A stretch of 43,482 nucleotides of DNA. It comes from Candidatus Latescibacterota bacterium. GTDB taxonomy: Bacteria; Latescibacterota; UBA2968. The DNA lies in the NCBI GenBank assembly GCA_038279365.1, contig JAYODI010000051.1, positions 1 through 43,482 of the forward strand. Direction: 5' to 3'. Below, in pieces: positions 5,305 to 20,382 of this stretch (position 1 is its first letter; every line of letters begins with the position of its first letter). The position numbers were made by a program, and so were the translations under genes. A model generated the notes under the pieces. The model was not told where the DNA came from, did not search any database, and saw only the letters and a program-made list of their open reading frames with translations.

Positions 5305-6087
5305 TCACTCTATCTCACGTCCCTTAATCTGGATGTCTTTGCTTTCTACAGCTTCATAAATTTGTTTGGGAGGTGCATGAAGTTCTTTGTTGTACAAAAT
5401 GTGAATTTCTACCCGCCGATTTTTAGCCATATTTTGTTCTGAGTTATTGGGTACGATCCATCGATACTCACTATATCCCGTAAAAGAAATGCGATCAGGT
5501 GCAATGCCCGAACGATCCATAAAATAACGTGCAACTTGCAATGCACGCATGCCCGACAACTCCCAATTCGAAGCATACTGCAATGTATTAATAGGGCGAT
5601 TGTCAGTATGGCCTTGTACATTAATGGGGTTAGACAAGGGTTTCAATACGCTCCCCAATTTGTCTAAAAATGATTTTGCACTCTCTTTAAGTTCTGTATC
5701 GGCAGTGGTAAAAAACAATTTGTCTGCGATGCGAATCACAAGCCCAGTCGTGGTTTCTTCAAGCTTTACATCACCTTGTAAACCCGCTTCTTCTATCGCC
5801 GTTTCAAGTTCTTGCCCTGCTTTGGTGAGCACCTCTGCCTGTTGCAAATTTCCTTCCGACTTGGGCATCGATTGGCGAATGGGCAAACTCAACTGTGGTT
5901 CACCACTGAGCACGCCCAACGCACCTTGCAAGGCTCCCATCGCCTGTTGAAATTCCACCACTTCCATGGTTGCAAAAGACAGCAAGAGCACAAAAAAAGT
6001 CAATAAAAGTGACATGAGGTCACCAAAAGTCGCCAGCCAGCCAGGCAAACCTTCGGGACATTCATCATCTTTAATCATGCGGCCCAT
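5305..6087 (-). CDS. motB: Flagellar stator MotB/PomB family protein (second copy)
   Basis: TM segment WLATFGDLMSLLLTFFVLLLS with the catalytic Asp; OmpA-like PG-binding domain (GHTD, NWELS..RA, NRRVEI). Confidence 0.92.
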   Translation of the reverse strand: MGRMIKDDECPEGLPGWLATFGDLMSLLLTFFVLLLSFATMEVVEFQQAMGALQGALGVLSGEPQLSLPIRQSMPKSEGNLQQAEVLTKAGQELETAIEEAGLQGDVKLEETTTGLVIRIADKLFFTTADTELKESAKSFLDKLGSVLKPLSNPINVQGHTDNRPINTLQYASNWELSGMRALQVARYFMDRSGIAPDRISFTGYSEYRWIVPNNSEQNMAKNRRVEIHILYNKELHAPPKQIYEAVESKDIQIKGREIE

Positions 6088-6136
6088 AAACTATCCTTCG
6101 TGTTAGGCAATAACCCAATATGCCCGTTTCTCTTCA

Positions 6137-6967
6137 TTATTCAGGTCTTCTTCTTCGCCGTGTGTTCTGTTTAATAATAGGTGACCCATCTTCACGCGAG
6201 GCACCCATTTGAGCACCCTTAAATGCTTCTGCCAAAATTTCCAAATTGCCATCTTCTTCACCCGCATATAAAATCAAAATTTCTACCCGACGATTTGTGC
6301 GGCGGCCTTCTGGGGTTGCATTGGTAGCAATAGGGCGATATTCGCCATACCCTTCAGCCGCCAAGCGGGTGGGCATCACCAGTGTTTCTGTAATTAAAAA
6401 ACGCACCACATTCACCGCACGCTGATAAGACAATTCCCAGTTGGTCGGATATTCAGCACTGGGGTTGGCAATAGGCACATTGTCTGTATGCCCTTGTACC
6501 ACCACTTGATTGGGCAATTCACGCAACAAATTACCCAAATCCATCAACACATTGCTCACCTCTGGTTTGAGTTCTGCACCGCCCACATCGTATAAAACCG
6601 GCGCTTGAATGCGAATGACCAACCCAGAAGATGTGCCCAAAAGCGAAACATCACCTTCCAAACCTTCTTCCGACAATGTTTTTTCCAAATTTTCTGCCGA
6701 CTTACGAATGTTTTGCGATTGCCGAATGCTGCCACGCACCATAGGCAAGGTCACCCGAATCGGTTGTGACATTTCAGGCTTCGACTCAAATACGCCCAAC
6801 GAAGCTTTTAATGAACCCATCGCATTTTTAAACTTAATTTCCTCAGTTGAAGAAAAGGAAAGCAACAACACAAAAAAGGTCAGCAACAACGACATCAAAT
6901 CGCCAAATGTTGCCAACCACCCAGGCAATCCTTCTGGGCAATCATCTTCATTAATCATCTTTGCCAT
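6137..6967 (-). CDS. motB: Flagellar stator MotB/PomB family protein (first copy)
   Basis: Same TM motif WLATFGDLMSLLLTFFVLLLSFS; GHTD, NWELSYQRA, GYGEYRP, NRRVEI. Confidence 0.92.
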   Translation of the reverse strand: MAKMINEDDCPEGLPGWLATFGDLMSLLLTFFVLLLSFSSTEEIKFKNAMGSLKASLGVFESKPEMSQPIRVTLPMVRGSIRQSQNIRKSAENLEKTLSEEGLEGDVSLLGTSSGLVIRIQAPVLYDVGGAELKPEVSNVLMDLGNLLRELPNQVVVQGHTDNVPIANPSAEYPTNWELSYQRAVNVVRFLITETLVMPTRLAAEGYGEYRPIATNATPEGRRTNRRVEILILYAGEEDGNLEILAEAFKGAQMGASREDGSPIIKQNTRRRRRPE

Positions 6968-8016: not shown

Positions 8017-8198
8017 AAATTTTCTTGGTTATAAGACGGCATACTTAAGAAATCATTTGTTTGGCCAAACTCTAAATCGAAAATGTAAGACAATTCGCCC
8101 GATTGTTCCACCTATAAATATATACAAACCAAAAACCAAAGACCATTGCCAACAGACCATAACCTGCCATAAAACACCCAAACAGAACCCATCAAAAC

Positions 8199-8244
8199 AA
8201 AAAATTGTGGTGGCGAACCCATCATCAGGCCCACCACCACAATT
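8199..8244 (-). terminator. Intrinsic terminator after flgE
   Basis: Stem AATTGTGGTGG/CCACCACAATT (8203-8213, 8234-8244) followed by a T-run on the minus strand, just after the flgE stop. Confidence 0.75.
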
Positions 8245-8252
8245 ACTAAAGC

Positions 8253-10208
8253 CTATTGTTTCAAGTTTACTGTTTCTGCCAAAATCTGATCAGTGGTCGT
8301 CACAATACGTGCATTGGCTTGAAAACCACGTTGTGAAGTAATCAATTCCGTAAACTCTTGCGCCAAGTCCACATTTGATAATTCCAATGATTCGGCAACA
8401 ATAACCGACTCAATGGTTTGACCAGCAATTTCAATCAAAGGATTTCCCGTATTTTCCGTTTCAGAAAATAGGTTGCCACCCAAACGGCGCAAACCACCTT
8501 CATTTTTAAAATTGGCCAAGTTAATACGTGCCATATTCAACGTTTCACCATTGGTAAAGCGACCCTCAATCACACCATCTGTACGAATAAACACGTTATC
8601 CAAGCGACCAGAGGCACGACCGTTTTGATCTACCACATCAGCCGTTGAAGGCGCAGAGAATTGTGTCAAACCGTTAATACCCCGTTCGGGTCTGGACAAA
8701 CCTGAAAAATCCATTCTTAAACCCTGCACATCACCATCTGGATTAAATTCGAGCAATGTCCCATCACCTTCAGTAGGTGTAAAAGAACGGATCGTTCCAT
8801 CTTCGTCAAAAACAACGATTCCCGATCCAGCAGCTGTTGGAATCTGGTTGTCAATGGTCAGGCTATATGCCCACTTATTTGCAACCGGCGATTCTGACAA
8901 GGTAATATTCATCACATGTTTACGACCTTGAGAATCGAAAATGGTCGTACTAATTTTATGTGTCTGCAAAGAATCTGCCCCCACCAAACCACTCCCCGTG
9001 GCATCATCTTCGAGGGAAACATTAATGGTAAATCCACTAACAGATGCACCTGCACTGTCTATCAACTTAATCTTACCCGTTAAATCCACACCACCAGTTA
9101 CATTATCACCAAATGCATTGGCTACCGTGTCGGTAAAATCTTGCAAGGTTGAACCCGCAGCAGCCGTAAAAGTACCATTATAGGCAGTACCATCAGCACG
9201 GGTACCCGAAAACCTTAAAACATCGCCCACTTGTAAGGAAGAACCCACTTGGGACAAGGCATTGAGTTCTATTGCACCTGTCGCCACCGCACTGGCAGTA
9301 CCTGTTGTACCAAAGCCCAATGTAGCCAAAGCTGTTCCAGCACCCACATCAACAGCATTCAGTTGCACACTGGGACCACCAAATGCTGTTCGAAACTCAA
9401 CCGTACCAGCAGCGGCAGGGTTTTCTTGCGCAATCACTTTTCCTGCCAAACGGTCATTACCCGCAATGGCAGCATTTAAACCGTCTACATATTGTTGTGT
9501 CGTTTGATAGTTGGCGGCTGGCAACGTGATAATACCACCCGTAATTCCATCAGGCGTGGTAATATTTAATTCGATCTGTTGAGCCGTAATCACGCCCGGT
9601 GCTGCCCCCCCAGCAATGGTCGAAGCTGTGGCAAACTCCGTTCCCGTATCCAAAGAGGAAACTGGACCAGGATCAATATTGCCCGAAAGATTCACACGTG
9701 TAGTAGCCACACCAGGAATTTCTTGATTCAAATCCAGTTGCAAATTTTGCAAACCCGTTGTCGCACCAAATGAACCCTCATTATTGGCCAAGTTACCTTG
9801 CACCACCAAACCGTTTGATGGGTTGATCAATTGACCCAAAGCATCAAAAGCAAATCCACCATCACGTGTATAAAACCGATTAAGCCCATCGCTCAAAATG
9901 AAAAATCCATCTCCATCAATGGCCAAGTCCGTTCCACGACCCGTGCTCTGCAAACTACCTTGTGTAAACGTTGTATCAATACTTTTGAGCCGAACACCCG
10001 TACCTGCTTGTGATGGGTTTGTTCCCGAAACACCACCTTCTGGTCCCGTAGCTTCTTTAAGCGTTTGTGCAAGCTGATCTTCAAAACTTGCACGACGCGC
10101 TTTAAATCCATTGGTGTTAATATTTGCGATATTGTCAGCAACCACATTCGTGCGCGTTTGATGCGCTTGGATACCTGACAAACCTGTAAACAAAGAGTTG
10201 AGAGCCAT
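8253..10208 (-). CDS. flgE: Flagellar hook protein FlgE (long form, ~651 aa)
   Basis: N-terminal SL.TGLSG..ADNIANINTNGFK, TGRGTDLAIDGDGFF; C-terminal LELSNVDLAQEFTELITSQRGFQANAR. Start moved to ATG 10208, 8 nt after GGAGG. Confidence 0.96.
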   Translation of the reverse strand: MALNSLFTGLSGIQAHQTRTNVVADNIANINTNGFKARRASFEDQLAQTLKEATGPEGGVSGTNPSQAGTGVRLKSIDTTFTQGSLQSTGRGTDLAIDGDGFFILSDGLNRFYTRDGGFAFDALGQLINPSNGLVVQGNLANNEGSFGATTGLQNLQLDLNQEIPGVATTRVNLSGNIDPGPVSSLDTGTEFATASTIAGGAAPGVITAQQIELNITTPDGITGGIITLPAANYQTTQQYVDGLNAAIAGNDRLAGKVIAQENPAAAGTVEFRTAFGGPSVQLNAVDVGAGTALATLGFGTTGTASAVATGAIELNALSQVGSSLQVGDVLRFSGTRADGTAYNGTFTAAAGSTLQDFTDTVANAFGDNVTGGVDLTGKIKLIDSAGASVSGFTINVSLEDDATGSGLVGADSLQTHKISTTIFDSQGRKHVMNITLSESPVANKWAYSLTIDNQIPTAAGSGIVVFDEDGTIRSFTPTEGDGTLLEFNPDGDVQGLRMDFSGLSRPERGINGLTQFSAPSTADVVDQNGRASGRLDNVFIRTDGVIEGRFTNGETLNMARINLANFKNEGGLRRLGGNLFSETENTGNPLIEIAGQTIESVIVAESLELSNVDLAQEFTELITSQRGFQANARIVTTTDQILAETVNLKQ

Positions 10209-10230
10209 TGTTGGCGCCTCCATAAGCTGT

Positions 10231-10283
10231 CCGTTGCGTCAGTCGGTCGGCAACGGTGGGGCTTCCTTCACAGGTCCAGCCCC
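10231..10283 (-). ncRNA. Candidate structured cis-regulatory RNA element in the flgE leader (two adjacent hairpins)
   Basis: GGGGCU-GGA-CCU[GUGA]AGG-A-AGCCCC, then CCGUUGC[CGACCGACUGAC]GCAACGG ending 9 nt before the flgE Shine-Dalgarno; GC-rich island in an AT-rich spacer; no U-tract. Confidence 0.55.
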
Positions 10284-10365
10284 GGGGTGGTAAAATTGAG
10301 ACGTCTCATTCCTTCCCTGGTTTGAAAACATCCACAACAATTTATGTTTTTAACTTTTCCTTTTG

Positions 10366-10761
10366 CTACTTTGCAATCACAGCACTGTCAATATTGGTAA
10401 ACACATTGTCGTTCAAACGCTCACCATCTACTGCCGTAATCACCGTGCGATTTGCCACACTAACCACAAGTGCCAAATCATCGCCACTTGCAGCACCAGG
10501 CATCAACACCAGTGCATCACGTGCTCCTTTATCTGCAGCACGGTTTACTGCATCATTTAACTTTTCAAGTGATTCTGCAGAAAGTTGTATGTCGCGATCA
10601 TTCAGACGGTTTTGAGCATGTGCCGAAAAATGTAATTTTTGATTCTTCTGCAAATGTTGCAGAATATCAGTAAACGATGCAGATCCTTTTGGCGGAATGG
10701 GCGTTTGGCGTCCCAAACTGGGGTCAATAGGAAGTCCGCCCGTATTTTGAATGCGTTCCAT
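10366..10761 (-). CDS. TIGR02530-family flagellar operon protein
   Basis: LHFSAHAQNRL..RDIQL..L..AV.RA..KGARDALVLM..ALVVSV.NRTVITA.D....NVFTNIDSAVI; typical position between flgD and flgE. Start at ATG 10761 with GGAG RBS. Confidence 0.88.
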   Translation of the reverse strand: MERIQNTGGLPIDPSLGRQTPIPPKGSASFTDILQHLQKNQKLHFSAHAQNRLNDRDIQLSAESLEKLNDAVNRAADKGARDALVLMPGAASGDDLALVVSVANRTVITAVDGERLNDNVFTNIDSAVIAK

Positions 10762-10765
10762 CGAC

Positions 10766-11452
10766 TTACTCCGTTTGAGAAATACGTGCCACACCCGACA
10801 GCGGTGCCTCACCACCATCAAGGATCATGATTGGTTTGCCCTCTGCATACCGAACACCTGTTACCTTACCTTGTATTTGTGCCTGAATCGTGACAGCATT
10901 GCCTTCACCATTTACGGCCTTAGGCACAAAATAATATGTGCCAGCAGACAAATTTTGCCCCGAATCATTCTTGCCATCCCAAGCCAAGCTGTTATTACCT
11001 TCTTCTGGCGAATGATCAACAATGGTGCGAACCACATTGCCCTCATCATCAAAAATTTCAAGATCAACACGATTCGCAGGGCCACCCAAATTATATCCAA
11101 GTGGCACATTGCCTTTCCCGGTATACGACAAGGTATCGGTAGGCACTTCAACAGATTTCCCAATGAGAGAAACAGCCGTATTGCTTTCAACCGCCAGCAT
11201 AACGCCGCCCAAAGCTTCCGTATCTTCTTTTCCAGAAACAGCTTCATTGATAGACGTCAGTTGCTCCAAAGAACTAAATTGTGACAGCTGTGCCACAAAA
11301 TCTTCGTTCTTAACCGGCTCCATAGGATCTTGGTTTTGAAGCTGAACAGTAAGCAATCGCAAAAAAGCATCGCGTCCTAAATCTTCCTTTTGAACACTTT
11401 CTGTAATGGTTGCCGTTTGTTGTGGCGTTGAAGCAATATCAGAAATATTCAT
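10766..11452 (-). CDS. flgD: Flagellar hook capping protein FlgD
   Basis: FLRLLTVQLQNQDPMEP....FVAQLSQFSSLEQ plus FlgD-Ig domain (WDGKNDSG..LSAGTY). Start at ATG 11452 after AAGGAGG. Confidence 0.96.
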   Translation of the reverse strand: MNISDIASTPQQTATITESVQKEDLGRDAFLRLLTVQLQNQDPMEPVKNEDFVAQLSQFSSLEQLTSINEAVSGKEDTEALGGVMLAVESNTAVSLIGKSVEVPTDTLSYTGKGNVPLGYNLGGPANRVDLEIFDDEGNVVRTIVDHSPEEGNNSLAWDGKNDSGQNLSAGTYYFVPKAVNGEGNAVTIQAQIQGKVTGVRYAEGKPIMILDGGEAPLSGVARISQTE

Positions 11453-11480
11453 TTTTCCCACCTCCTTTCAATCTATGATT

Positions 11481-11639
11481 CAGCAATTTTTTTCCATCTT
11501 CCCTGAAGGTACAGCTCTTCTTCCCTGATTCTAAAACCAATTGCTGTGTAACGCCTCATCCCTGAGAAAAATGATCTATCCCTGATAAATTACGTTTACG
11601 TTGAAAACGAACAAGAGACTTCCTTATCTCCTGTTTTCA
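11481..11639 (-). promoter_or_regulatory. Array of ANGGAN motifs, several in hexaloop hairpins (CsrA/RsmA-type sites), in the fliK-flgD spacer
   Basis: TCAGGGA four times on the minus strand (+ strand TCCCTGA at 11500, 11522, 11559, 11579) and an AAGGAA hexaloop on the 9-bp stem ACAGGAGAU/GUCUCUUGU. Confidence 0.6.
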
Positions 11640-11654
11640 CCTGTCTTTTTAAGA

Positions 11655-14600
11655 TTAGGCCATAAAATCAACTTGCCCATCAGATGTTTGTCTTTGCCGC
11701 TTTTCAGCCTGATCCCATCGCGACTCAGAACGTGGTTGTTGACGTTGTTCACGGTTTTGAGAGCGATCTTCTAGACCTTCACGGAAGGCTTCACGATCTG
11801 CTTGATTACCACGGTCATTCACTGATACATCAATATTTTCAATCTGAATACCTTGCCCAGCCAAAGCATCACGCAAAGTGCTCAAATGACGTTGAACAAT
11901 TTCTTGTACTTTCTGGTTCTCAACAACAATTTCGCCCGAAACCTTCTGATCATGGCTCGACAAACGAATGGTCACTTCCCCCAACTCTTGCGGGTCAATA
12001 CGCATCGTTACTTCTGTGTTACCAGCACGCATCATCACACGCGCATTGCGAACAACCTGCTCGCCCACACCGTAGTGACGGTCAATCTGCTCAGATGGCA
12101 TGGTATCCAACTGACCTCTTGCAACTTCTGTGCCAGTGCCTTCGCGATGAACCATATCAATTCGCATTTCAGGATGTTCTGGCATACGTTCTATATTTTG
12201 TAATTCTGTGTCAACACGCTGTTCGATGTTGGGCAAGGCCATTTCTGGTTCAACAACACCACCAAATGCAACAGAAGCGGTATTGTCAGAGGAGTTACTT
12301 GGCGCAACAACGGGTTGATGCGGTGCGTTGTGTTGTTCTCGACCGGCACCATCATTTGTCTGAGAATCTGAAGAAATAATTGTAGAATTTTCCAAGCCTT
12401 CGGAAAATGTTTCAACATCTCGATCCAATTCATCCACAGAACGTTGTGCCTCATCATCAACCGCAGGAGCCTGTATGGGATGTGGCAAAACAGAATCTTG
12501 GGCAACTGGTTGTTGAGATTGTGTCACAACAGGTTGCTGCAAGTCAACTTTTTCTGAAACAACTTTGTGAGAAACTGTTTCTAACGGTTGTGAAAAGACC
12601 AAACGTGAAGTCTGTTTTGTTTCCGCAGGTTGAATCTCTTTGTTTGTAATCACATTTTCTGGCATGGCAACAGAGGGTGCTTGCTCAGACACCACAGACC
12701 GTTCCGTTGTCGTTTCCTCAGGCATCATAGGCACCTGAGAAATCCCATTCTCCACAGTTTCTATGGGGGTTTGTGGCAAAACAACGGGATTTATATCTGT
12801 ACCATTTTGCATTTCAGATGACGTCATTTGCTGAGAGGTATGCAGTGCGGAAGGCAATGGTAATGTTTGCTTGTTTTGAACTTCATCAACAATTGGTGAC
12901 TGAGGTAATACAACCGATTCATTTTGCATCTCAGAAAAACGACGTTGTTGTAGATCACCATTTTGCCCAATCGAAGACATCAACCCACGTTGGGGAGATG
13001 ATGGCATTTTCACCTGTGGTTGGGCCAAACCATTTTGCTCGAACGACTGCGATGGGGTTCCGATGGCCCCTCTTTCTGAGACCAATGGACGAACGTTTTC
13101 TTGAGAACGAGCACTACTCAAGACTGCCGATTCTGATACAGACTCACGGGACACACGATTAGGCTGTGCACCCAACAACTCTTGTTCTGACGAACGTGGC
13201 ACTTCTTGAGAACGAGCACTACTCAAGACTGCCGATTCTGATACAGACTCACGGGACACACGATTAGGCTGTGCACCTAATTCTGCTTTATCAAATGAAC
13301 GAGATGTTTCAGAAGAACGTGCAATTCCCAATACATCTGATTCGGATACGGACTCGCCAGAACCTGCGTCTAATTGGGTTCCCAAATCGACCGACTCATC
13401 TGAGCGAGACACCACAGAAGTGCGCGAAGTTTTCGACATATCAGGCTCTGGTACGGCCCCACGAGGTGTAAAATTAGATACGGCAATTTCACCACTTAGA
13501 TCCATCGCCATTTTTTGCCCAACAACTTGAGAGGTCTGATCAGATACCGTTCGAGATACATTTTGTTGTGAATGAGGTTGTGAAATAGGGGTTTGGCTCG
13601 GAATGACATCATTTTCAGATGCACGTTCCTGAACATCTTCCTCTTGAGATAAAATGGGTGTTTGGGGGCGTGACAAAGCGGGTGGCATCACTTGTTTTTC
13701 GGCACGCGCAGAAGCAAAGGATGAAACATTCACCCGATCTGTTATACTTTGCCTATTAACACTTCCAGAAACACGGTTTTCTACCAAAGGTTGAGGTGTA
13801 ACTTGTGGCTGATTTTGTCGAACGTCTCGCCCAAAAAACCGAGGTGTTTGTTCTACGTCAGCAAGATCCTTTTCCACAACACCAGCATCCACCGTTTTAT
13901 CCACTTGGACCAATTGATCAGACGGCAATATAGACTGCGTCTCTATGGGCGACTGTGCCACATATAAAGAACCATCCTGTCCATTCGCATTATGGGTGTG
14001 AATTGTCTCTTTCAAGGCCACAGACAATTCCGAATCAGATGCATCCTCTTCACTTAAAAAACGTGCCTGAGATTGAGTTTCAGATACCATATTTTGAGAC
14101 GATTCAATATCTATCTCGGCATCTTCGTCTGACAAGGCATCCAATACAAAACGCGGTTGTGAAACACCTTGCCCAACCTGCGCAACACCACCATTTGAAC
14201 CAACTGTTTTAGGTGTCTCACTTTGCAATAAAACCTCTGTCGATGGCGCGTTGTCAGTGCGTCTAAAAATGGGTAATGGTGAATCGGGGTCATCAGAAGC
14301 AAGATCTTCTAATGCAACAGTTGGCAATTCTCGTCTTGCGGATGCAAGCATATTTCTACCACCTTGCAAACGTCGATCAACCGCCAACAAATCATAAGGC
14401 GATACCCCCTGACGCACTTGTTCGCCATTGGCTTTTAGCGCCGCCCCAGATGCCTCAGATGCTGAAACAGGTGTTAACGAAACCATATCTTGTGCCACAT
14501 CTTCCAAACCAGTCTCGTCTAACAATGGTTTTCCCATCAGTGCAAATTCACCCGCCCCATCCTCCTCCCCTTCAACAGAAACAACAGGTACAAATTTGGC

Positions 14601-14894
14601 ACTTTGAGCCGACAATGGTGCAACCTGCGGCCCCTCCGCTTCAGGTACCAACACAGACATAATCTGTTTGGGTGTATCGCCACCAGATTCAGCGCCATCA
14701 AGCAAGTCTGCCATTAAAGCAGCAAGCTTGGGTCGCTCTGGCATTGGTAAGGCTGGGGCACCCTCAGCATCAAATTGATGCTGAGCGTTTTGCAACATAT
14801 CCCGAAAACCAGTACCAATATCGAGCAACCCTGAATGATCTGGCAACTGAACAGATGGTGCACCAGGTAATGGTTGCAAGGGTAAAAGAAACAT
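11655..14894 (-). CDS. fliK: Flagellar hook-length control protein FliK (very long, 1079 aa)
   Basis: Long S/Q/P/E-rich low-complexity region plus C-terminal FliK_C domain (VTMRIDPQELGEVTIRL...L.TLRDALAGQGIQIENIDV); directly upstream of flgD. Confidence 0.9.
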   Translation of the reverse strand: MFLLPLQPLPGAPSVQLPDHSGLLDIGTGFRDMLQNAQHQFDAEGAPALPMPERPKLAALMADLLDGAESGGDTPKQIMSVLVPEAEGPQVAPLSAQSAKFVPVVSVEGEEDGAGEFALMGKPLLDETGLEDVAQDMVSLTPVSASEASGAALKANGEQVRQGVSPYDLLAVDRRLQGGRNMLASARRELPTVALEDLASDDPDSPLPIFRRTDNAPSTEVLLQSETPKTVGSNGGVAQVGQGVSQPRFVLDALSDEDAEIDIESSQNMVSETQSQARFLSEEDASDSELSVALKETIHTHNANGQDGSLYVAQSPIETQSILPSDQLVQVDKTVDAGVVEKDLADVEQTPRFFGRDVRQNQPQVTPQPLVENRVSGSVNRQSITDRVNVSSFASARAEKQVMPPALSRPQTPILSQEEDVQERASENDVIPSQTPISQPHSQQNVSRTVSDQTSQVVGQKMAMDLSGEIAVSNFTPRGAVPEPDMSKTSRTSVVSRSDESVDLGTQLDAGSGESVSESDVLGIARSSETSRSFDKAELGAQPNRVSRESVSESAVLSSARSQEVPRSSEQELLGAQPNRVSRESVSESAVLSSARSQENVRPLVSERGAIGTPSQSFEQNGLAQPQVKMPSSPQRGLMSSIGQNGDLQQRRFSEMQNESVVLPQSPIVDEVQNKQTLPLPSALHTSQQMTSSEMQNGTDINPVVLPQTPIETVENGISQVPMMPEETTTERSVVSEQAPSVAMPENVITNKEIQPAETKQTSRLVFSQPLETVSHKVVSEKVDLQQPVVTQSQQPVAQDSVLPHPIQAPAVDDEAQRSVDELDRDVETFSEGLENSTIISSDSQTNDGAGREQHNAPHQPVVAPSNSSDNTASVAFGGVVEPEMALPNIEQRVDTELQNIERMPEHPEMRIDMVHREGTGTEVARGQLDTMPSEQIDRHYGVGEQVVRNARVMMRAGNTEVTMRIDPQELGEVTIRLSSHDQKVSGEIVVENQKVQEIVQRHLSTLRDALAGQGIQIENIDVSVNDRGNQADREAFREGLEDRSQNREQRQQPRSESRWDQAEKRQRQTSDGQVDFMA
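13098..13277. repeat. Exact 75-bp direct repeat (105-bp period) inside fliK
   Basis: 13098-13172 is identical to 13203-13277; encodes GAQPNRVSRESVSESAVLSSARSQE twice. Confidence 0.95.
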
Positions 14895-16042: not shown

Positions 16043-17341
16043 TTATTTGGCTAACAAACTCGCCATTTTGGATATGGTTTGATCGTATGGGGCTTGGTCT
16101 TGAATACCTTGCCGCAAAAATGTATTCACAGCATCTATACGATCAATTGCAAAATCAATTTTAGGATTATTGCCCTTTTGATAGGCACCAATATTGATCA
16201 AATCTGCAGCCTCGCGATATGTTGCCATCAAATCTTTAAGCCGATTGGCACACTCTAAGTGTTGCGATGTTGCCACCTCAGTCATCACACGGCTTACACT
16301 GTCGAGTGGATCTATGGCAGGATAATGACCCTGTGATTGCAAACGGCGTGACAACACAATATGACCATCCAAAATAGAGCGCACAGAATCGGCAATAGGA
16401 TCATCCATGTCATCGCCTTCAACAAGCACCGTATACAACCCAGTAATACTGCCACGAGCTCCCATACCAGCACGTTCGAGCAAGCGTGGTAATAAGGCAA
16501 AGGTCGATGGTGTATATCCACGCGTAGTAGGTGGCTCACCTATGGCCAACCCCACTTCTCGTTGTGCCATCGCCACACGGGTGACCGAATCCATCATCAT
16601 TAAAACATCTTTTCCCAAATCGCGAAAATGTTCAGCAATCGTTGTTGCCACTTGTGCAGCCTTAATGCGCACCAAAGCGGGTTGATCTGATGTGGCCACC
16701 ACCACCACAGATCTTGCAAGTCCTTCTTCTCCCAAGTCGCGCTCTAAAAAGTCGCGTACTTCTCGACCGCGTTCACCCACCAGTGCAATCACATTGATAT
16801 CGGCTTTTGCTTGTCGAGCAAGCATGCCCAACAACACACTTTTCCCCACACCACTCCCCGCAAAAATACCAGCACGCTGTCCTTTGCCACACGTAATCAA
16901 ACTGTCAATCGCCCGAATGCCCGTGGCAAGCGGTTCTGTAATGCGTTGCCGAGACATAGGGTCGGGCGGGTTGCCAGCAATAGCGCGTTTTTGATCGGCC
17001 CATAAAGGACCTTTGCCATCTATGGGCTCACCCATCGCATTGAGCACTCGCCCCAGCAAAGCATTGCCAACACGCACTGTAATAGGCTCATCGGTTGCCA
17101 CCACGCGACTGCCTGGTGCAATGCCATCCATATTTCCCAATGGCATCATCAACACACGGTTATCGCGAAAACCAACCACCTCAGCCAAAACCGTTTTTTC
17201 ACCTTCGATACGACAGCACTCACCAATAGACACAGATGGCCCAGTTGCCTCAATAACCAAGCCCACCACCTGGCTCACACGCCCACCTAACCGAATGGAA
17301 TCGGTATTTTTTGTCGTCTCTATGAGTTGTGCCACATTCAT
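16043..17341 (-). CDS. fliI: Flagellar export ATPase FliI
   Basis: GIFAGSGVGKS Walker A, GERGREV, MDSVTR, GEPP.TRGY, ILDGHIVLSR. Confidence 0.97.
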   Translation of the reverse strand: MNVAQLIETTKNTDSIRLGGRVSQVVGLVIEATGPSVSIGECCRIEGEKTVLAEVVGFRDNRVLMMPLGNMDGIAPGSRVVATDEPITVRVGNALLGRVLNAMGEPIDGKGPLWADQKRAIAGNPPDPMSRQRITEPLATGIRAIDSLITCGKGQRAGIFAGSGVGKSVLLGMLARQAKADINVIALVGERGREVRDFLERDLGEEGLARSVVVVATSDQPALVRIKAAQVATTIAEHFRDLGKDVLMMMDSVTRVAMAQREVGLAIGEPPTTRGYTPSTFALLPRLLERAGMGARGSITGLYTVLVEGDDMDDPIADSVRSILDGHIVLSRRLQSQGHYPAIDPLDSVSRVMTEVATSQHLECANRLKDLMATYREAADLINIGAYQKGNNPKIDFAIDRIDAVNTFLRQGIQDQAPYDQTISKMASLLAK

Positions 17342-18771
17342 GATTGCTCTGCCTCTTCATCATTTCCAGATATATCATCTATTAAACCTGTCTGTTCTTC
17401 TAAACTTTCTGGCAATTCCACTTCATCTGTTGACTGTCCCACCACATCTTCGCCATCAGCAACATCAGCATCTACAGGCAAAGCATCCAGCACCTCTTCA
17501 GTGACTGTTTCAGCGGCCAAATCCCCTTCGCCCAACTGACCATCACCATCTGCTTGTGCCAGCAAATAGTTCTCAGCTTGAACATCAGCACTTTCTGCTT
17601 CCGTAGGCAAATCTGGCTCGGATTCTGCAGCCACAACACTTTCTGCTTCCGTTACATCTTCCACAGAAATCACAGGTTCAACATTTTCCATTTCAACACC
17701 AGCGGTCACCTCATCAAGGCTTTCTATATCATTTCCTGACAACGGTGCCTCTGACAACACATCTTTCGCAGAAACAATCGCATCTTTATCTTCACCAGCA
17801 GGCAAGGTAGGCGCATCTGCAACCTGAGAGGATTGTGGAACGGTTTCAACAGGTTCAATTACATTTTCATCTATAAACTCAACAGTGCCTTGACCACCCA
17901 CATTGGCAATCACATCCGACACATCGGGTGCCGTTTCTTGGGGTTCATTTTGCAAGCTTTCCAAAATAACACCACGCAATTTCTCTATCCGTGAAACAAG
18001 TTGCCCATCAATATCACCCGATGGGGTTTCAATAATACACCCACCACGTTCTATCGATGCATCGGCTTCAATAATCATAGACTCAATGCGTTCATAAGAT
18101 TCTTGCCAATGTGTTCGATTTGCACGCACAAGCACAAGATCATCGGGATTGACACAAATGGTTAACTGCTTGGTATCTTGCACATGTGCCAAACAATCGC
18201 GCACAGATTGCAAAACCAAATCTTCACGAACATCAGACACGGCACCAATAATATTTTGAGCAATGGCAAAGGCCAACTGTGTCACATCCATATCTGCCGA
18301 TTTAAAAATCCGATCCCATCGATCTGCCAAGTAACCAAGCATGGCTTGAAAACGCGCGATTTCATCTTGGCTTTGTGTTTGGCCTTCGGCCAATCCCACT
18401 TGATATCCTTCTTCATATCCTTGTGCATGCCCAGCTTCAACTCCGGCCTGATGAGCCGATTCTATTGCCTGCTCTTTTTCTTGCAAAAACTGTGCTTCGG
18501 CTTCCCGCAATCTTGCTTCAATCAATCCTTCAACTTCTTCCATCGACAACTTCGGCTCTGCTTCTGTCTCATCCACAACTTCTACTTGTTCGCCCAATGG
18601 TCGAAATGCGACAGATTCTTCGACATCTTGGTTTTGTGCTGCCTCAAAATCTTCTTCAGAAACGGTTTCTTCTTCAGATTCGAAAGGCAACTCAACCATG
18701 CCACGATCCACATGGATAGGCAATACAACAGGCTTGGAGGAAATACGGGCAGTGCGAATGACTCTGTTCAT
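17338..18771 (-). CDS. fliH: Flagellar assembly protein FliH with long acidic C-terminal tail
   Basis: GxxxG repeats (AGVEAGHAQGYEEGYQVGLAEG), VNPDDL, DASIERGGCIIET..GDIDG; overlaps the fliI start. Confidence 0.88.
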   Translation of the reverse strand: MNRVIRTARISSKPVVLPIHVDRGMVELPFESEEETVSEEDFEAAQNQDVEESVAFRPLGEQVEVVDETEAEPKLSMEEVEGLIEARLREAEAQFLQEKEQAIESAHQAGVEAGHAQGYEEGYQVGLAEGQTQSQDEIARFQAMLGYLADRWDRIFKSADMDVTQLAFAIAQNIIGAVSDVREDLVLQSVRDCLAHVQDTKQLTICVNPDDLVLVRANRTHWQESYERIESMIIEADASIERGGCIIETPSGDIDGQLVSRIEKLRGVILESLQNEPQETAPDVSDVIANVGGQGTVEFIDENVIEPVETVPQSSQVADAPTLPAGEDKDAIVSAKDVLSEAPLSGNDIESLDEVTAGVEMENVEPVISVEDVTEAESVVAAESEPDLPTEAESADVQAENYLLAQADGDGQLGEGDLAAETVTEEVLDALPVDADVADGEDVVGQSTDEVELPESLEEQTGLIDDISGNDEEAEQS

Positions 18772-18846
18772 AATATTAAATGACCAACCTTTAGAAACAA
18801 TATGTTCAACAAAGACGCTTTTTGAGCGATGAACGAAAAACCTTTT

Positions 18847-20382
18847 TTATTGACCTTGACGTTGCCGATTTGATGCGTCTTCAATAAGCATCGTACGGAT
18901 CAATTTGGCAGCATCTTCAGGACGTTCCGAAATCAATTGTGCAATACGGCCCAAGATAATCTCATGTGGCGTCTCGGGCAATTCTTCTCCAGCATCATCT
19001 TCTTCCAACTCGCGCTGGGCCTCCATTGCAATTTCTTCTTCACGTGCCACACCGCGTCCAATAGCACCAATAATGGCACGCAATACCAGCAGTGCAATGA
19101 TAATGGCAATACCCTTTGCCACATTGATCACAATATTTGTAATCAATTCATCGCGTTCATTTTCTTTTCGTTTCTTTTCTGCAACCACGCGTAAGTCTTG
19201 AATGGCAAACACAAATCGACTGACCTCCAGTCGGTCTCCTCGGCTTTCATCCATTCCCAAAGCACCACGCACCAAATTGGAAAACTGGAGCATATCATCA
19301 GCTGTACGTGTTTTATACACAGGGTTTTCTGGGTCGGTTGTTGCTTCAGCATCGGGCACCTTGTCATTCAACATCAATGAAGCCGAAATGCGACGAATGC
19401 GCCCAGGTGCACCCGTAATACGCTGAATGGTGCGGTCAATTTCATAGTTTGAAACACTGCGCTCACTTGTGCCAGCCTCAGCAGAAGATTCTTCATTGCG
19501 TTCTTCACTGCGCAACACCGTATTGGCGGGGTCATATCGTTCAACTTCTTCTTGTACTTCTCGAAAATCCAAATCGACCGAGACTTTCAATTTTGCCTGA
19601 TCGGGGCCCAGTACCAAGTCTAAAATCTCTTGTACTTCGCGTTGCATATATCGCTCAACATTGCGCTGGGCTTCAATTTGTTTGGTCGTCATTTGTGCCA
19701 AAGGATCAATTTCTTCAGACAGCATATGACCAGCATTGTCTAACACCGTTATATTCTTTGGATCAAGTCCTTCAACACTGCTGGCCACCAAATTTTGTAT
19801 GGCCTGAATTTGTTGTTTGTCCAACGTCATGCGTGGTCTAAGATTGAGTAATATAGATGCCGTTGCTGGTTTTTGCTGATCTGTAAACAAACTCGGTTTG
19901 GGTGTTACCACATGAAGACGTACATCTTCAACTTGTTCCAATGCCAAAATGGTTTTTTTAAGCTCACCTTCTAAAGCCTGCTGCATCTTTACTTGTTGCA
20001 AAAAGTCTGTCATACCCAAGGGCATGTTATCAAACACTTCGTAACCAATATATCCAGTTTTGGGAAATCCTTCAGTAGCCAATATATTGCGCAATTCGGC
20101 GCGATCACTGTCGGGCACCAAAATGAGCGAACCATCGGCACCTAAGTGAAAATCTTGATTCATCTCACGCAAACGATTAGAAATTTCGCCCGCTTCTTTC
20201 ATGTCAATATCCGTATACAATGGGCGATAAACCGTATCTTCGCCATTCCCACTGCTTGCAACAAGATAGATCAAAAAAATCAAAATGACACCGGCACCCA
20301 CACCGATACCGATTTTTTGATTGCGCCCCATTGCCTCAAACATCTCACGAGCTTTTTCTAAATATGCCCGAATGGCATCCAT
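18847..20382 (-). CDS. fliF: Flagellar MS-ring protein FliF
   Basis: Two TM segments; GYEVFD...GMTDF.Q.....ALEGEL, ATASI.L, LVASSVEGL; C-terminal PEDAAKLIR. Confidence 0.95.
   Translation of the reverse strand: MDAIRAYLEKAREMFEAMGRNQKIGIGVGAGVILIFLIYLVASSGNGEDTVYRPLYTDIDMKEAGEISNRLREMNQDFHLGADGSLILVPDSDRAELRNILATEGFPKTGYIGYEVFDNMPLGMTDFLQQVKMQQALEGELKKTILALEQVEDVRLHVVTPKPSLFTDQQKPATASILLNLRPRMTLDKQQIQAIQNLVASSVEGLDPKNITVLDNAGHMLSEEIDPLAQMTTKQIEAQRNVERYMQREVQEILDLVLGPDQAKLKVSVDLDFREVQEEVERYDPANTVLRSEERNEESSAEAGTSERSVSNYEIDRTIQRITGAPGRIRRISASLMLNDKVPDAEATTDPENPVYKTRTADDMLQFSNLVRGALGMDESRGDRLEVSRFVFAIQDLRVVAEKKRKENERDELITNIVINVAKGIAIIIALLVLRAIIGAIGRGVAREEEIAMEAQRELEEDDAGEELPETPHEIILGRIAQLISERPEDAAKLIRTMLIEDASNRQRQGQ

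Follow-up and report, generated by a model that had tools for sequence, protein, structure and literature searches.

The closest described counterpart of the RNA element considered here is the hag leader of Bacillus subtilis, with its Hag-FliW-CsrA partner switch. To our knowledge, the ancestral CsrA circuit of FliW-type bacteria is understood almost only as flagellin homeostasis. We describe an array of GGA motifs in the spacer between fliK and the hook-cap gene flgD, on the minus strand of a 43,482-nt contig (C14; 'the window' denotes this whole stretch) of an uncultured Candidatus Latescibacterota bacterium, and we hypothesize that the spacer is probably a cis-acting, multi-site operator on the flgD mRNA with predicted CsrA binding. 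The locus resembles the hag system in that the CsrA of the host is of the FliW type, extended at its C-terminus and encoded beside fliW, in that host flagellin leaders combine a hairpin GGA with a GGA in the Shine-Dalgarno sequence (SD), and in that the flgD leader carries the same type of site beside an AAGGAGG SD. Unlike the hag leader, it precedes a hook-cap gene, has five upstream sites rather than one, and is intercistronic in a hook-basal-body operon, with part of the array inside an outer stem.

In Campylobacter jejuni, CsrA co-purifies mainly flagellar mRNAs, with enrichments of 356-fold for the leader of the hook operon (Cj0040-fliK-flgD-flgE2), 68-fold for flgE and 3.6-fold for flgD; it binds between genes in polycistronic mRNAs, and the flaA leader is both a target and an antagonist of the protein (PMC4894983). 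The parallel with the present locus is that of a FliW-containing bacterium in which hook-gene transcripts and intergenic sites are bound and an mRNA leader can titrate CsrA, whereas the enrichment in C. jejuni lies at the 5' untranslated region of the first gene and at flgE, an array of five to six sites is not described in the text consulted, and both the phylum and the operon layout differ (PMC4894983). CsrA sites more generally follow a consensus, RUACARGGAUGU, obtained by in vitro selection (SELEX), with 6-nt loops, short stems and bridging over 10-63 nt; among Escherichia coli leaders, glgC has four sites and pgaA six, and a dimer anchored at a high-affinity hairpin reaches across to the SD (PMC7652899). 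The fliK-flgD spacer likewise has several GGA motifs, one of them at the SD, at spacings within 10-63 nt, but glgC and pgaA have 5' leaders of primary transcripts in a system with CsrB/C sponges and without FliW, whereas the present element is intercistronic and its CsrA of the FliW type (PMC7652899). Like the CsrB, RsmY and RsmZ RNAs, the array repeats A(N)GGA hairpins and pairs neighbouring sites about 20 nt apart; unlike them, it is part of an mRNA that continues past an SD at its end, and it has neither an Rfam match nor its own promoter or terminator. FliW and Csr small RNAs are anti-correlated, and the review leaves undetermined whether both ever act together (PMC7652899). We found no description in the literature of a CsrA-site array before flgD or in Latescibacterota, although the supplementary tables of the C. 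jejuni study, which were outside the search, may list intra-operon peaks near flgD.

The GGA array ahead of flgD

The features that make up the array and its borders are as follows, in the 5' to 3' order of the mRNA.

11655..14894, minus strand: fliK, the gene 5' of the array, an open reading frame (ORF) of 1079 aa with a Pfam Flg_hook match (E 1.9e-19) and stop codon UAA at 11657-11655
11453-11654, minus strand: the fliK-flgD spacer, 202 nt
11610..11635, minus strand: site 1, AACAGGAGAU[AAGGAA]GUCUCUUGUU, a 10-pair stem including G-U, with its hexaloop at 11625-11620 and a probability of 1.00 that the GGA is unpaired
11579..11585, minus strand: site 2, UCAGGGA in the context UAUCAGGGAUAG, within the 5' arm of a predicted start-region duplex
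11554..11567, minus strand: site 3, UCUC[AGGGAU]GAGG, four pairs by sequence, the basal pair being U-G
11539..11546, minus strand: 5' arm of the outer stem, CAGCAAUU, from inverted repeat I2 and the minimum-free-energy (MFE) fold
11519..11528, minus strand: site 4, UC[AGGGAA]GA, a weak 2-pair stem by sequence, inside the outer stem
11494..11509, minus strand: site 5, CCUUC[AGGGAA]GAUGG, by sequence, with one internal U-U mismatch, inside the outer stem
11481..11488, minus strand: 3' arm of the outer stem, AAUUGCUG, from inverted repeat I2 and the MFE fold
11459..11468, minus strand: SD of flgD, AAAGGAGGUG, by sequence, containing a GGA 37 nt after that of site 5 and invariant in alignment A2
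10766..11452, minus strand: flgD, the hook-cap gene 3' of the array, 228 aa, with Pfam matches to FlgD, FlgD_ig and FLgD_tudor and AUG at 11452-11450

A preliminary description of this DNA, made from its sequence, had reported UCAGGGA four times in a spacer of about 200 nt, and the four copies are indeed there in 202 nt, all on the mRNA strand and within 86 nt (11585-11579, 11565-11559, 11528-11522 and 11506-11500). The hairpins it drew are in the sequence: site 1 has ten pairs, site 3 has four and site 4 is weak with two, as described there; the stem of site 5 contains the U-U mismatch and so falls short of five clean pairs. The outer stem said to close shortly before the flgD SD was recovered both as inverted repeat I2 and in the MFE fold; its eight pairs, CAGCAAUU/AAUUGCUG, enclose sites 4 and 5 and end 13 nt before the SD. 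A further hairpin claimed for the flgE leader, CC[AGGGAA]GG, was found as CCAGGGAAGG at 10320-10311. There are five ANGGA motifs upstream of the SD, those of sites 1 and 3 in hexaloops and those of sites 4 and 5 weakly displayed, and the core of site 3, CAGGGAUG, agrees with CARGGAUG of the SELEX consensus (PMC7652899). Spacings of 20 nt between sites 2 and 3, 22 nt between sites 4 and 5 and 37 nt from site 5 to the SD GGA all fall inside the bridging range. Two other readings of parts of the spacer were rejected: site 1 and its following U-run as a fliK terminator, the U-run being absent in the related locus L125 and altered in natural variants (11606-11608), which argues that site 1 is not a conserved terminator; and a five-codon mini-ORF (AUGGAAAAAAAUUGCUGA), which is not conserved in the related loci L123-L125.

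The host is a marine sediment-type bacterium whose assembly comprises 6,032,124 bp (6.03 Mb) in 199 contigs at 46% G+C. UCAGGGA occurs 191 times on the two strands of this genome; counting both strands, the window contains only four matches, all of them in the spacer, against an expectation of 3.33 +/- 1.68 across its 43.5 kb, and the sole other place with at least two copies within 100 nt is one pair on contig C114. Since this heptamer had been picked in the preliminary description after inspection of the sequence, rarity was assessed with a pattern from the literature, CANGGANG, the core of the SELEX consensus (PMC7652899). It matches 1448 times in the genome and forms just two clusters of three, one of which is the spacer, against about 0.03 expected. 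Seventeen doublets occur genome-wide and three of these are flagellin leaders, so that the scan recovers the canonical CsrA target unprompted. The pattern is depleted in the window (12 found, 19.75 +/- 4.5 expected), and three of the 12 are in the spacer and one in the flgE leader. A scan for ANGGA displayed in loops of 5-8 nt closed by at least three pairs, a lax definition that 11,318 of 28,652 sites satisfy, gave 66 clusters of three or more, among which the spacer alone reaches five and is the densest; of five genome-wide AGGGA clusters with at least three members, the spacer alone has four. No other sponge-like locus was found in the genome-wide AGGGA and hairpin-ANGGA cluster scans. Across 160 FlgD loci of many lineages, only four close relatives carry two or more CANGGANG upstream, and the array as a generic property of flgD upstream regions was rejected on this count.

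Some GGA-rich places elsewhere in the genome proved to be of other kinds. At C182:57533-57657 (minus strand) a GGA-rich intergenic region with three CANGGANG is flanked on one side by a TetR-family gene and on the other by small unannotated ORFs, after which come a GntR regulator and an ABC ATPase, and hairpin display in this region is not obvious; it was rejected as a related cluster, as was a GGA-rich cluster at the start of an adenylosuccinate-lyase gene (C20:37851-37992), both being without a flagellar link. Naive GGA-density scans are dominated by short tandem arrays of 8-nt units such as GGACGAAU and GGAAUCAA (C134:33056-33207, C148:33443-33521, C187:32835-32873 and C85:16722-16742).

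The preliminary description had pointed to csrA and fliW as genes to look for, and both are present and adjacent on contig C194. There is a single csrA (one PF02599 match of 83.6 bits, 82 aa) adjoining a single fliW, the pair lying downstream of flgL; among solved structures the CsrA protein best matches FliW-bound CsrA (5dmb_D), in an alignment over residues 2-79 that takes in the C-terminal extension, and its VHR motif keeps the arginine. By these features the CsrA system of the host is present and looks functional. Flagellin_N gave seven matches of 95-140 bits and, at the position of the flgL-like gene immediately upstream of fliW, an eighth of 68 bits. At least three flagellin genes have a hairpin of the GGCA[AGGA]UGCC type 20-40 nt before an SD of the form ACAAGGAGGU (C36:36784-36900, C20:23772-23880 and C194:38900-39025, the last before the gene at C194:39026), and these leaders are predicted hag-type CsrA operators; the other flagellin genes (a pair on C46, C194:37186 and one on C70) lack a hairpin of this type. 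Upstream of the hairpin-bearing leaders are CGATAA-type boxes, which we take to resemble sigma-28 promoters.

The array in related genomes

The close relatives come mostly from metagenome contigs, and the length of sequence upstream of flgD differs among them.

L123: FlgD identity 96%, 73 nt upstream
L124: FlgD identity 82%, 110 nt upstream
L125 (L126 is identical here): FlgD identity 80%, full spacer
L043 (genome G005; the same as L004): FlgD identity 63%, full spacer

The array is present in all four, and in each the GGA cores are kept while the flanking sequence varies; the question raised in the preliminary description, whether the GGA motifs recur in orthologous spacers, can be answered in the affirmative for the closest relatives, in which N varies and the stems are changed. 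In L125 there are eight GGAs upstream, and at the relative place of site 1 it has GGGCC[AAGGAA]GGCCC, in which the loop is kept and the stem wholly replaced. Site 2 is conserved in L125 as CUAUCAGGGAUGG, and site 3 appears as ACUC[AAGGAU]GAGG in L125, C[ACGGAU]GAGG in L124 and ACUC[ACGGAA]GAGU in L043. The site cores are either invariant or altered at N only (AGGGAU, AAGGAU, ACGGAU), and a fixed GGA beside a varying N is the signature of CsrA rather than of a stem requirement. The SD, the 3' arm of the outer stem and sites 4 and 5 are where the invariant columns of alignment A2 concentrate: site 4 is nearly invariant as AGGGAAGA or AAGGAAGA, the core of site 5, AGGGAAGA, is identical in all four sequences with a stem that differs between relatives, and the two sites together are nearly invariant as (A/G)GGAAGA. 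The outer stem is in the MFE fold of all four sequences that were folded, each independently, and is extended on different sides; in L125 it has 12 pairs, three of them G-U and one switched from U-A to A-U, in L124 at least ten, and the form GUUCAGCA/UGCUGAAC in L043. Site spacings are also kept, at 20/37/22, 18/37/22 and 22/35/17 nt. FlgD of the window and of the three loci L123-L125 shares the N-terminus MNISDIAS.

Outside this group, FlgD is patchily distributed (in the order it occurs in nine of 53 genomes and in the phylum in 45 of 168, csrA being found in 55 of the 168). In genera g3 and g2 a single GAAGGGAUG stands some 20-25 nt ahead of AAGGAGGUG, accompanied by one or two further GGAs, and this sister-genus form is, as far as its sequence can tell, the canonical hairpin-plus-SD layout. 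In family f2, genome G042 has two GGGA, G041 has none beyond a terminator-like hairpin and G036 has the SD region only, while more distant Latescibacterota of the f4 family have fliK-flgD spacers of 10-40 nt that lack the array. Region 10200-12000 gave no DNA match in the same-genus genomes G001 and G002 or in the same-family genomes G003 and G007, all csrA-positive, and below E 1e-20 none of the four has a match to FlgD; G001, G002 and G007 are 88-90% complete, and G003 consists of one complete contig. On the sequences compared, the array is conserved only in a narrow clade, and it looks like a lineage-specific expansion of an apparent two-site operator.

One genome of the same order, G036 (loci L005 and L045), is 97% complete and has flgD and flgE with no csrA or fliW match, a single case. 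Its fliK-flgD spacer is about 50 nt long and without an upstream GGA hairpin, and it offers a natural comparison for CsrA-dependent features.

The hook operon and its transcripts

By Pfam annotation the minus-strand flagellar operon runs fliE, fliF, fliH, fliI, fliJ, an MgtE_N-like gene and fliK, then, after the 202-nt spacer, flgD, a 'Flagellar_put' gene, a 157-nt leader, flgE, a 236-nt spacer, flbD, motA, motB, motB and fliN. The features concerned here beyond flgD are the following.

10209..10365, minus strand: flgE leader (Flagellar_put-flgE spacer), 157 nt, with eight GGA, six of them counted as ANGGA, plus an order-wide conserved two-hairpin structure
8253-10208, minus strand: flgE, by Pfam

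Within the operon, where the background is 1.3 GGA per 100 nt, only the two hook-gene leaders are GGA-rich: the fliK-flgD spacer has nine GGA and seven ANGGA in 202 nt and the Flagellar_put-flgE spacer eight and six in 157 nt, compared with one and none in the 236 nt between flgE and flbD.

The flgE leader also contains a structure found across the order (10217-10287, minus strand). CCCC at 10287-10284 pairs with GGAGG of the flgE SD (10221-10217) and encloses two hairpins; one is GGGGCU..AGCCCC (10283-10258) and the other CCGUUGC..GCAACGG (10256-10231), whose loop GACCGAYUGA is conserved. It was seen in the window and in L123, L124, L125, L004, L005, L006, L007, L008, L041 and L042, RNAalifold giving 20 pairs over the 11 sequences, eight of them with compensatory changes, and it has no Rfam match. 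On this modelling it is a candidate for a new cis-regulatory RNA motif.

Other features of the operon may be recorded briefly. Directly 3' of flgE, the flgE-flbD spacer (8017-8252, minus strand) opens on GGUGGUGG..CCACCAC, a G+C-rich hairpin that has a U-run behind it and resembles a terminator or attenuator; if it is a terminator, fliK-flgD-flgE would end a transcription unit. FliK (11655-14894) is unusually long at 1079 aa, with an internal near-duplicate segment (NRVSRESVSESAVLSSARSQE, twice) 5' of the Flg_hook domain. Two tandem motB paralogues encode 260 and 276 aa (window 5305-6967). No FliG domain was detected between fliF and fliH (17338-20382), where a 477-aa ORF (17338-18771) matches FliH at residues 136-265 only.

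A promoter within the 202-nt gap would allow a quite different reading, in which the TCAGGGA direct repeats (about 20-22 and 37 bp apart) bind a transcription factor at the DNA level and serve an internal flgD-flgE promoter. The spacer does contain direct repeats of 10-12 nt at spacings of 20, 22 and 37 bp and is long enough to house a promoter, but a crude consensus scan of 10200-11900 showed no sigma-70-like promoter upstream of the array, the only minus-strand match overlapping the SD and the start codon. By eye, the spacer lacks TAAA-N15-CGATAA, the pattern of the flagellin genes that we take to be sigma-28-like, and its single GG-N9-GC, whose spacing is presumably wrong for sigma-54, is not conserved in L123-L125. 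The orthologues, moreover, alter the repeat at N and keep the strand-specific hairpins and the outer stem, which points to conservation at the level of RNA, and we regard a DNA element as very improbable.

The preliminary description had likened the array to CsrB or RsmZ and left two possibilities, an operator on hook genes or an intra-operon sponge. As a sponge the array would mainly titrate CsrA, either while part of the hook-basal-body mRNA or once processing has set it free as a fragment, and transcription of the operon would then lower free CsrA and raise flagellin translation. Five to six hairpin-displayed sites lie within the span of small Rsm sponges, towards the lower limit for RNAs of the CsrB/RsmX/Y/Z type, the cluster is the top one of the genome and the cluster scans yielded no second candidate, the flaA leader of C. 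jejuni sets a precedent for a target that is also an antagonist (PMC4894983), and the near 1:1:1 stoichiometry of the B. subtilis system (PMC6529632) is such that a few sites per mRNA could matter. The long-range duplex considered below (11586-11563 with 11460-11438) could also, in principle, be a double-strand-specific cleavage site that frees the domain of sites 4 and 5. Against a sponge, the crude scan of 10200-11900 showed no intrinsic-terminator-like site in the spacer, in addition to the missing sigma-70-like promoter, and Rfam gave no match at gathering score over the whole window and, at E up to 10 over 11400-11720, five matches that all belong to unrelated families. Among the public sequencing runs listed, 20 of 24 contain at least part of the stretch, six of these 20 being RNA libraries; contigs of four metatranscriptome runs cover the spacer, and one (X8 record 25, 11070-11924) crosses both of its borders, from flgD to the end of fliK, which is compatible with co-transcription, with DNA carry-over possible and with the proviso that such contigs cannot show ends, strand, level or a discrete fragment. 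The element, furthermore, abuts the flgD SD and sister genera keep a version with one site plus SD, so that it looks like an expanded operator. We consider a function mainly as a sponge rather unlikely: no defining feature of a dedicated sponge except site number supports it, and the likeness to the CsrB/RsmZ family was not borne out, although CsrA titration may occur as a side-effect of the operon mRNA.

The public runs also reveal differences between strains in the spacer at a minimum of 19 positions among those listed, none of them in a GGA core or in the SD, a pattern that is suggestive.

Leader structure and the direction of control

A long-range duplex emerges when 20-30 nt of flgD coding sequence are added to the fold, with base-pair probabilities of about 1.0 in both arms.

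11563..11586, minus strand: 5' arm of the duplex, covering site 2 and the 5' half of site 3
11438..11460, minus strand: 3' arm of the duplex, covering the SD-AUG spacer, the AUG and flgD codons 2-5

Its 22 pairs amount to -26.5 kcal/mol, reached by none of 300 shuffled upstream sequences (mean -11.7 +/- 2.3). The fold with 30 nt of flgD coding sequence has -56.0 kcal/mol against -44.6 +/- 3.7 in shuffles, and accessibility of the start region is 0.22 against 0.44, with two of 100 shuffles as low. In L125 the duplex is in the same register but weak (-10.5 kcal/mol, 165 of 300 shuffles as good), synonymous changes breaking two pairs, and in L043 it is not significant (-16.2 kcal/mol, 138 of 300). 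Sequestration of the start region as a conserved feature was therefore rejected; because the duplex is not significant in either relative, it is, on these folding models, a species-level trait that the conserved element does not include. The duplex is relevant to mechanism, since CsrA at sites 2 and 3 would be mutually exclusive with it.

These structures raise the question of whether the leader needs CsrA at all, and it could instead act as a riboregulator, serve in processing or stability, or be bound by some other RNA-binding protein, its GGAs being by-products of purine-rich stems. The stability of the extended fold, the low accessibility of the start and the strength of the duplex are what such a leader would predict, and the anti-SD and two-hairpin structure of the flgE leader is kept even in G036, where csrA and fliW were not matched, which implies that hook-gene leaders in the order use RNA structure that is independent of CsrA. 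The duplex, though, fails in L125 and L043 where the ANGGA cores are conserved, it is N and not GGA that varies, and the same class of motif marks the flagellin leaders. We therefore think a CsrA-free leader unlikely, and the array is very probably CsrA-related.

Our working hypothesis remains the multi-site CsrA operator on flgD mRNA. It fits better than a sponge because the array adjoins the flgD SD, because sister genera keep one hairpin plus SD and because nothing marks an independent small RNA; of the two possibilities left by the preliminary description, the operator is thus the one favoured, and membership of a sponge family is not supported. The inference common to both, an array of CsrA-type sites on the hook-gene transcript, withstood every computational check by which that description could have been refuted. 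Genome-wide, CANGGANG marks both the spacer and the flagellin leaders. We propose that the spacer would serve as a platform for the single FliW-type CsrA of the genome, its five upstream A(N)GGA and the SD GGA being able to hold about three CsrA dimers, and that occupancy would set flgD translation according to free CsrA, itself set by the flagellin-FliW-CsrA partner switch. The GGA sites of the flgE leader would probably do likewise for flgE.

Several observations weigh against this hypothesis. The spacer by itself is no more stable than its shuffles (-44.5 against -40.2 +/- 3.9 kcal/mol, z -1.11, 21 of 200 shuffles as good), and in the ensemble the GGAs of sites 2-5 of the window sequence are only partly unpaired (probabilities 0.13-0.55, that of site 1 being 1.00). 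The covarying stems sought in the preliminary description are compatible with alignment A2, in which 88.9% of cells are paired compared with 29-64% for slid partners and two of 21 pairs change on both sides, yet formal covariation is weak and not significant (113 of 500 shuffles reach the observed score), because only three to four sequences cover it. Relatives that have csrA can lack the array (G041, and the f4 family with its short spacers), so that it is not a necessary part of the FliW-CsrA system. The GGA in the SD is generic, strong AAGGAGG SDs being common in the host genome, and csrA (C194) and the window (C14) are on different contigs of a metagenome-assembled genome with an estimated contamination of 7.4%. 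Finally, if the signal that represses flagellin also represses hook genes, the physiological logic is not obvious.

Given binding, the chances that CsrA represses flgD by occluding the SD seem to us about even, and this is our modal guess because the SD GGA is within bridging distance of site 5, because in sister genera the minimal version consists of a hairpin and the SD and because CsrA represses other flagellar targets in C. jejuni (PMC4894983). A role mainly in stability or titration would be unlikely. Activation by opening of the duplex that sequesters the start codon is put forward more tentatively, but by analogy it is a serious alternative in this species, with a precedent in ymdA of E. 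coli, where CsrA at two sites destabilizes a ribosome-blocking structure and so activates translation (PMC7492729). As in ymdA, a pair of CsrA sites is concerned: in this species the strand sequestering the translation start region of flgD carries two candidates; unlike the SD hairpin of ymdA, the predicted structure here has 22 pairs, formed at long range across the AUG and early codons, and is seen in the window and not conserved in the relatives with 80% and 63% FlgD identity (PMC7492729).

Activation, if true, would give a reciprocal logic in which hooks are on and the filament is off while CsrA is free. Developed in full, one regulator would act as an early/late switch, turning the hook cap and hook on while repressing flagellin. 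Free CsrA would bind nascent sites 2 and 3 and block the duplex that buries the flgD start codon, so that hook-cap and hook synthesis is on; CsrA would be free as long as unexported flagellin occupies FliW. After completion of the hook and the start of flagellin export, FliW would capture CsrA, the duplex would form, hook-cap translation would go off and flagellin translation on. As a variant, cleavage of the duplex would release the domain of sites 4 and 5 as an operon-derived CsrA sponge in a FliW-type bacterium. We regard this scheme, variant included, as doubtful.

If the operator hypothesis is true, the FliW-CsrA circuit extends from flagellin to hook assembly in an uncultured phylum. A compact RNA of about 230 nt would bear on whether CsrA coordinates early and late flagellar substrates, and on whether it does so by repression or by opening of a duplex. 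The array would also bear on whether operon mRNAs can buffer CsrA in bacteria where Csr/Rsm small RNAs are absent, a point that the review leaves undetermined (PMC7652899).

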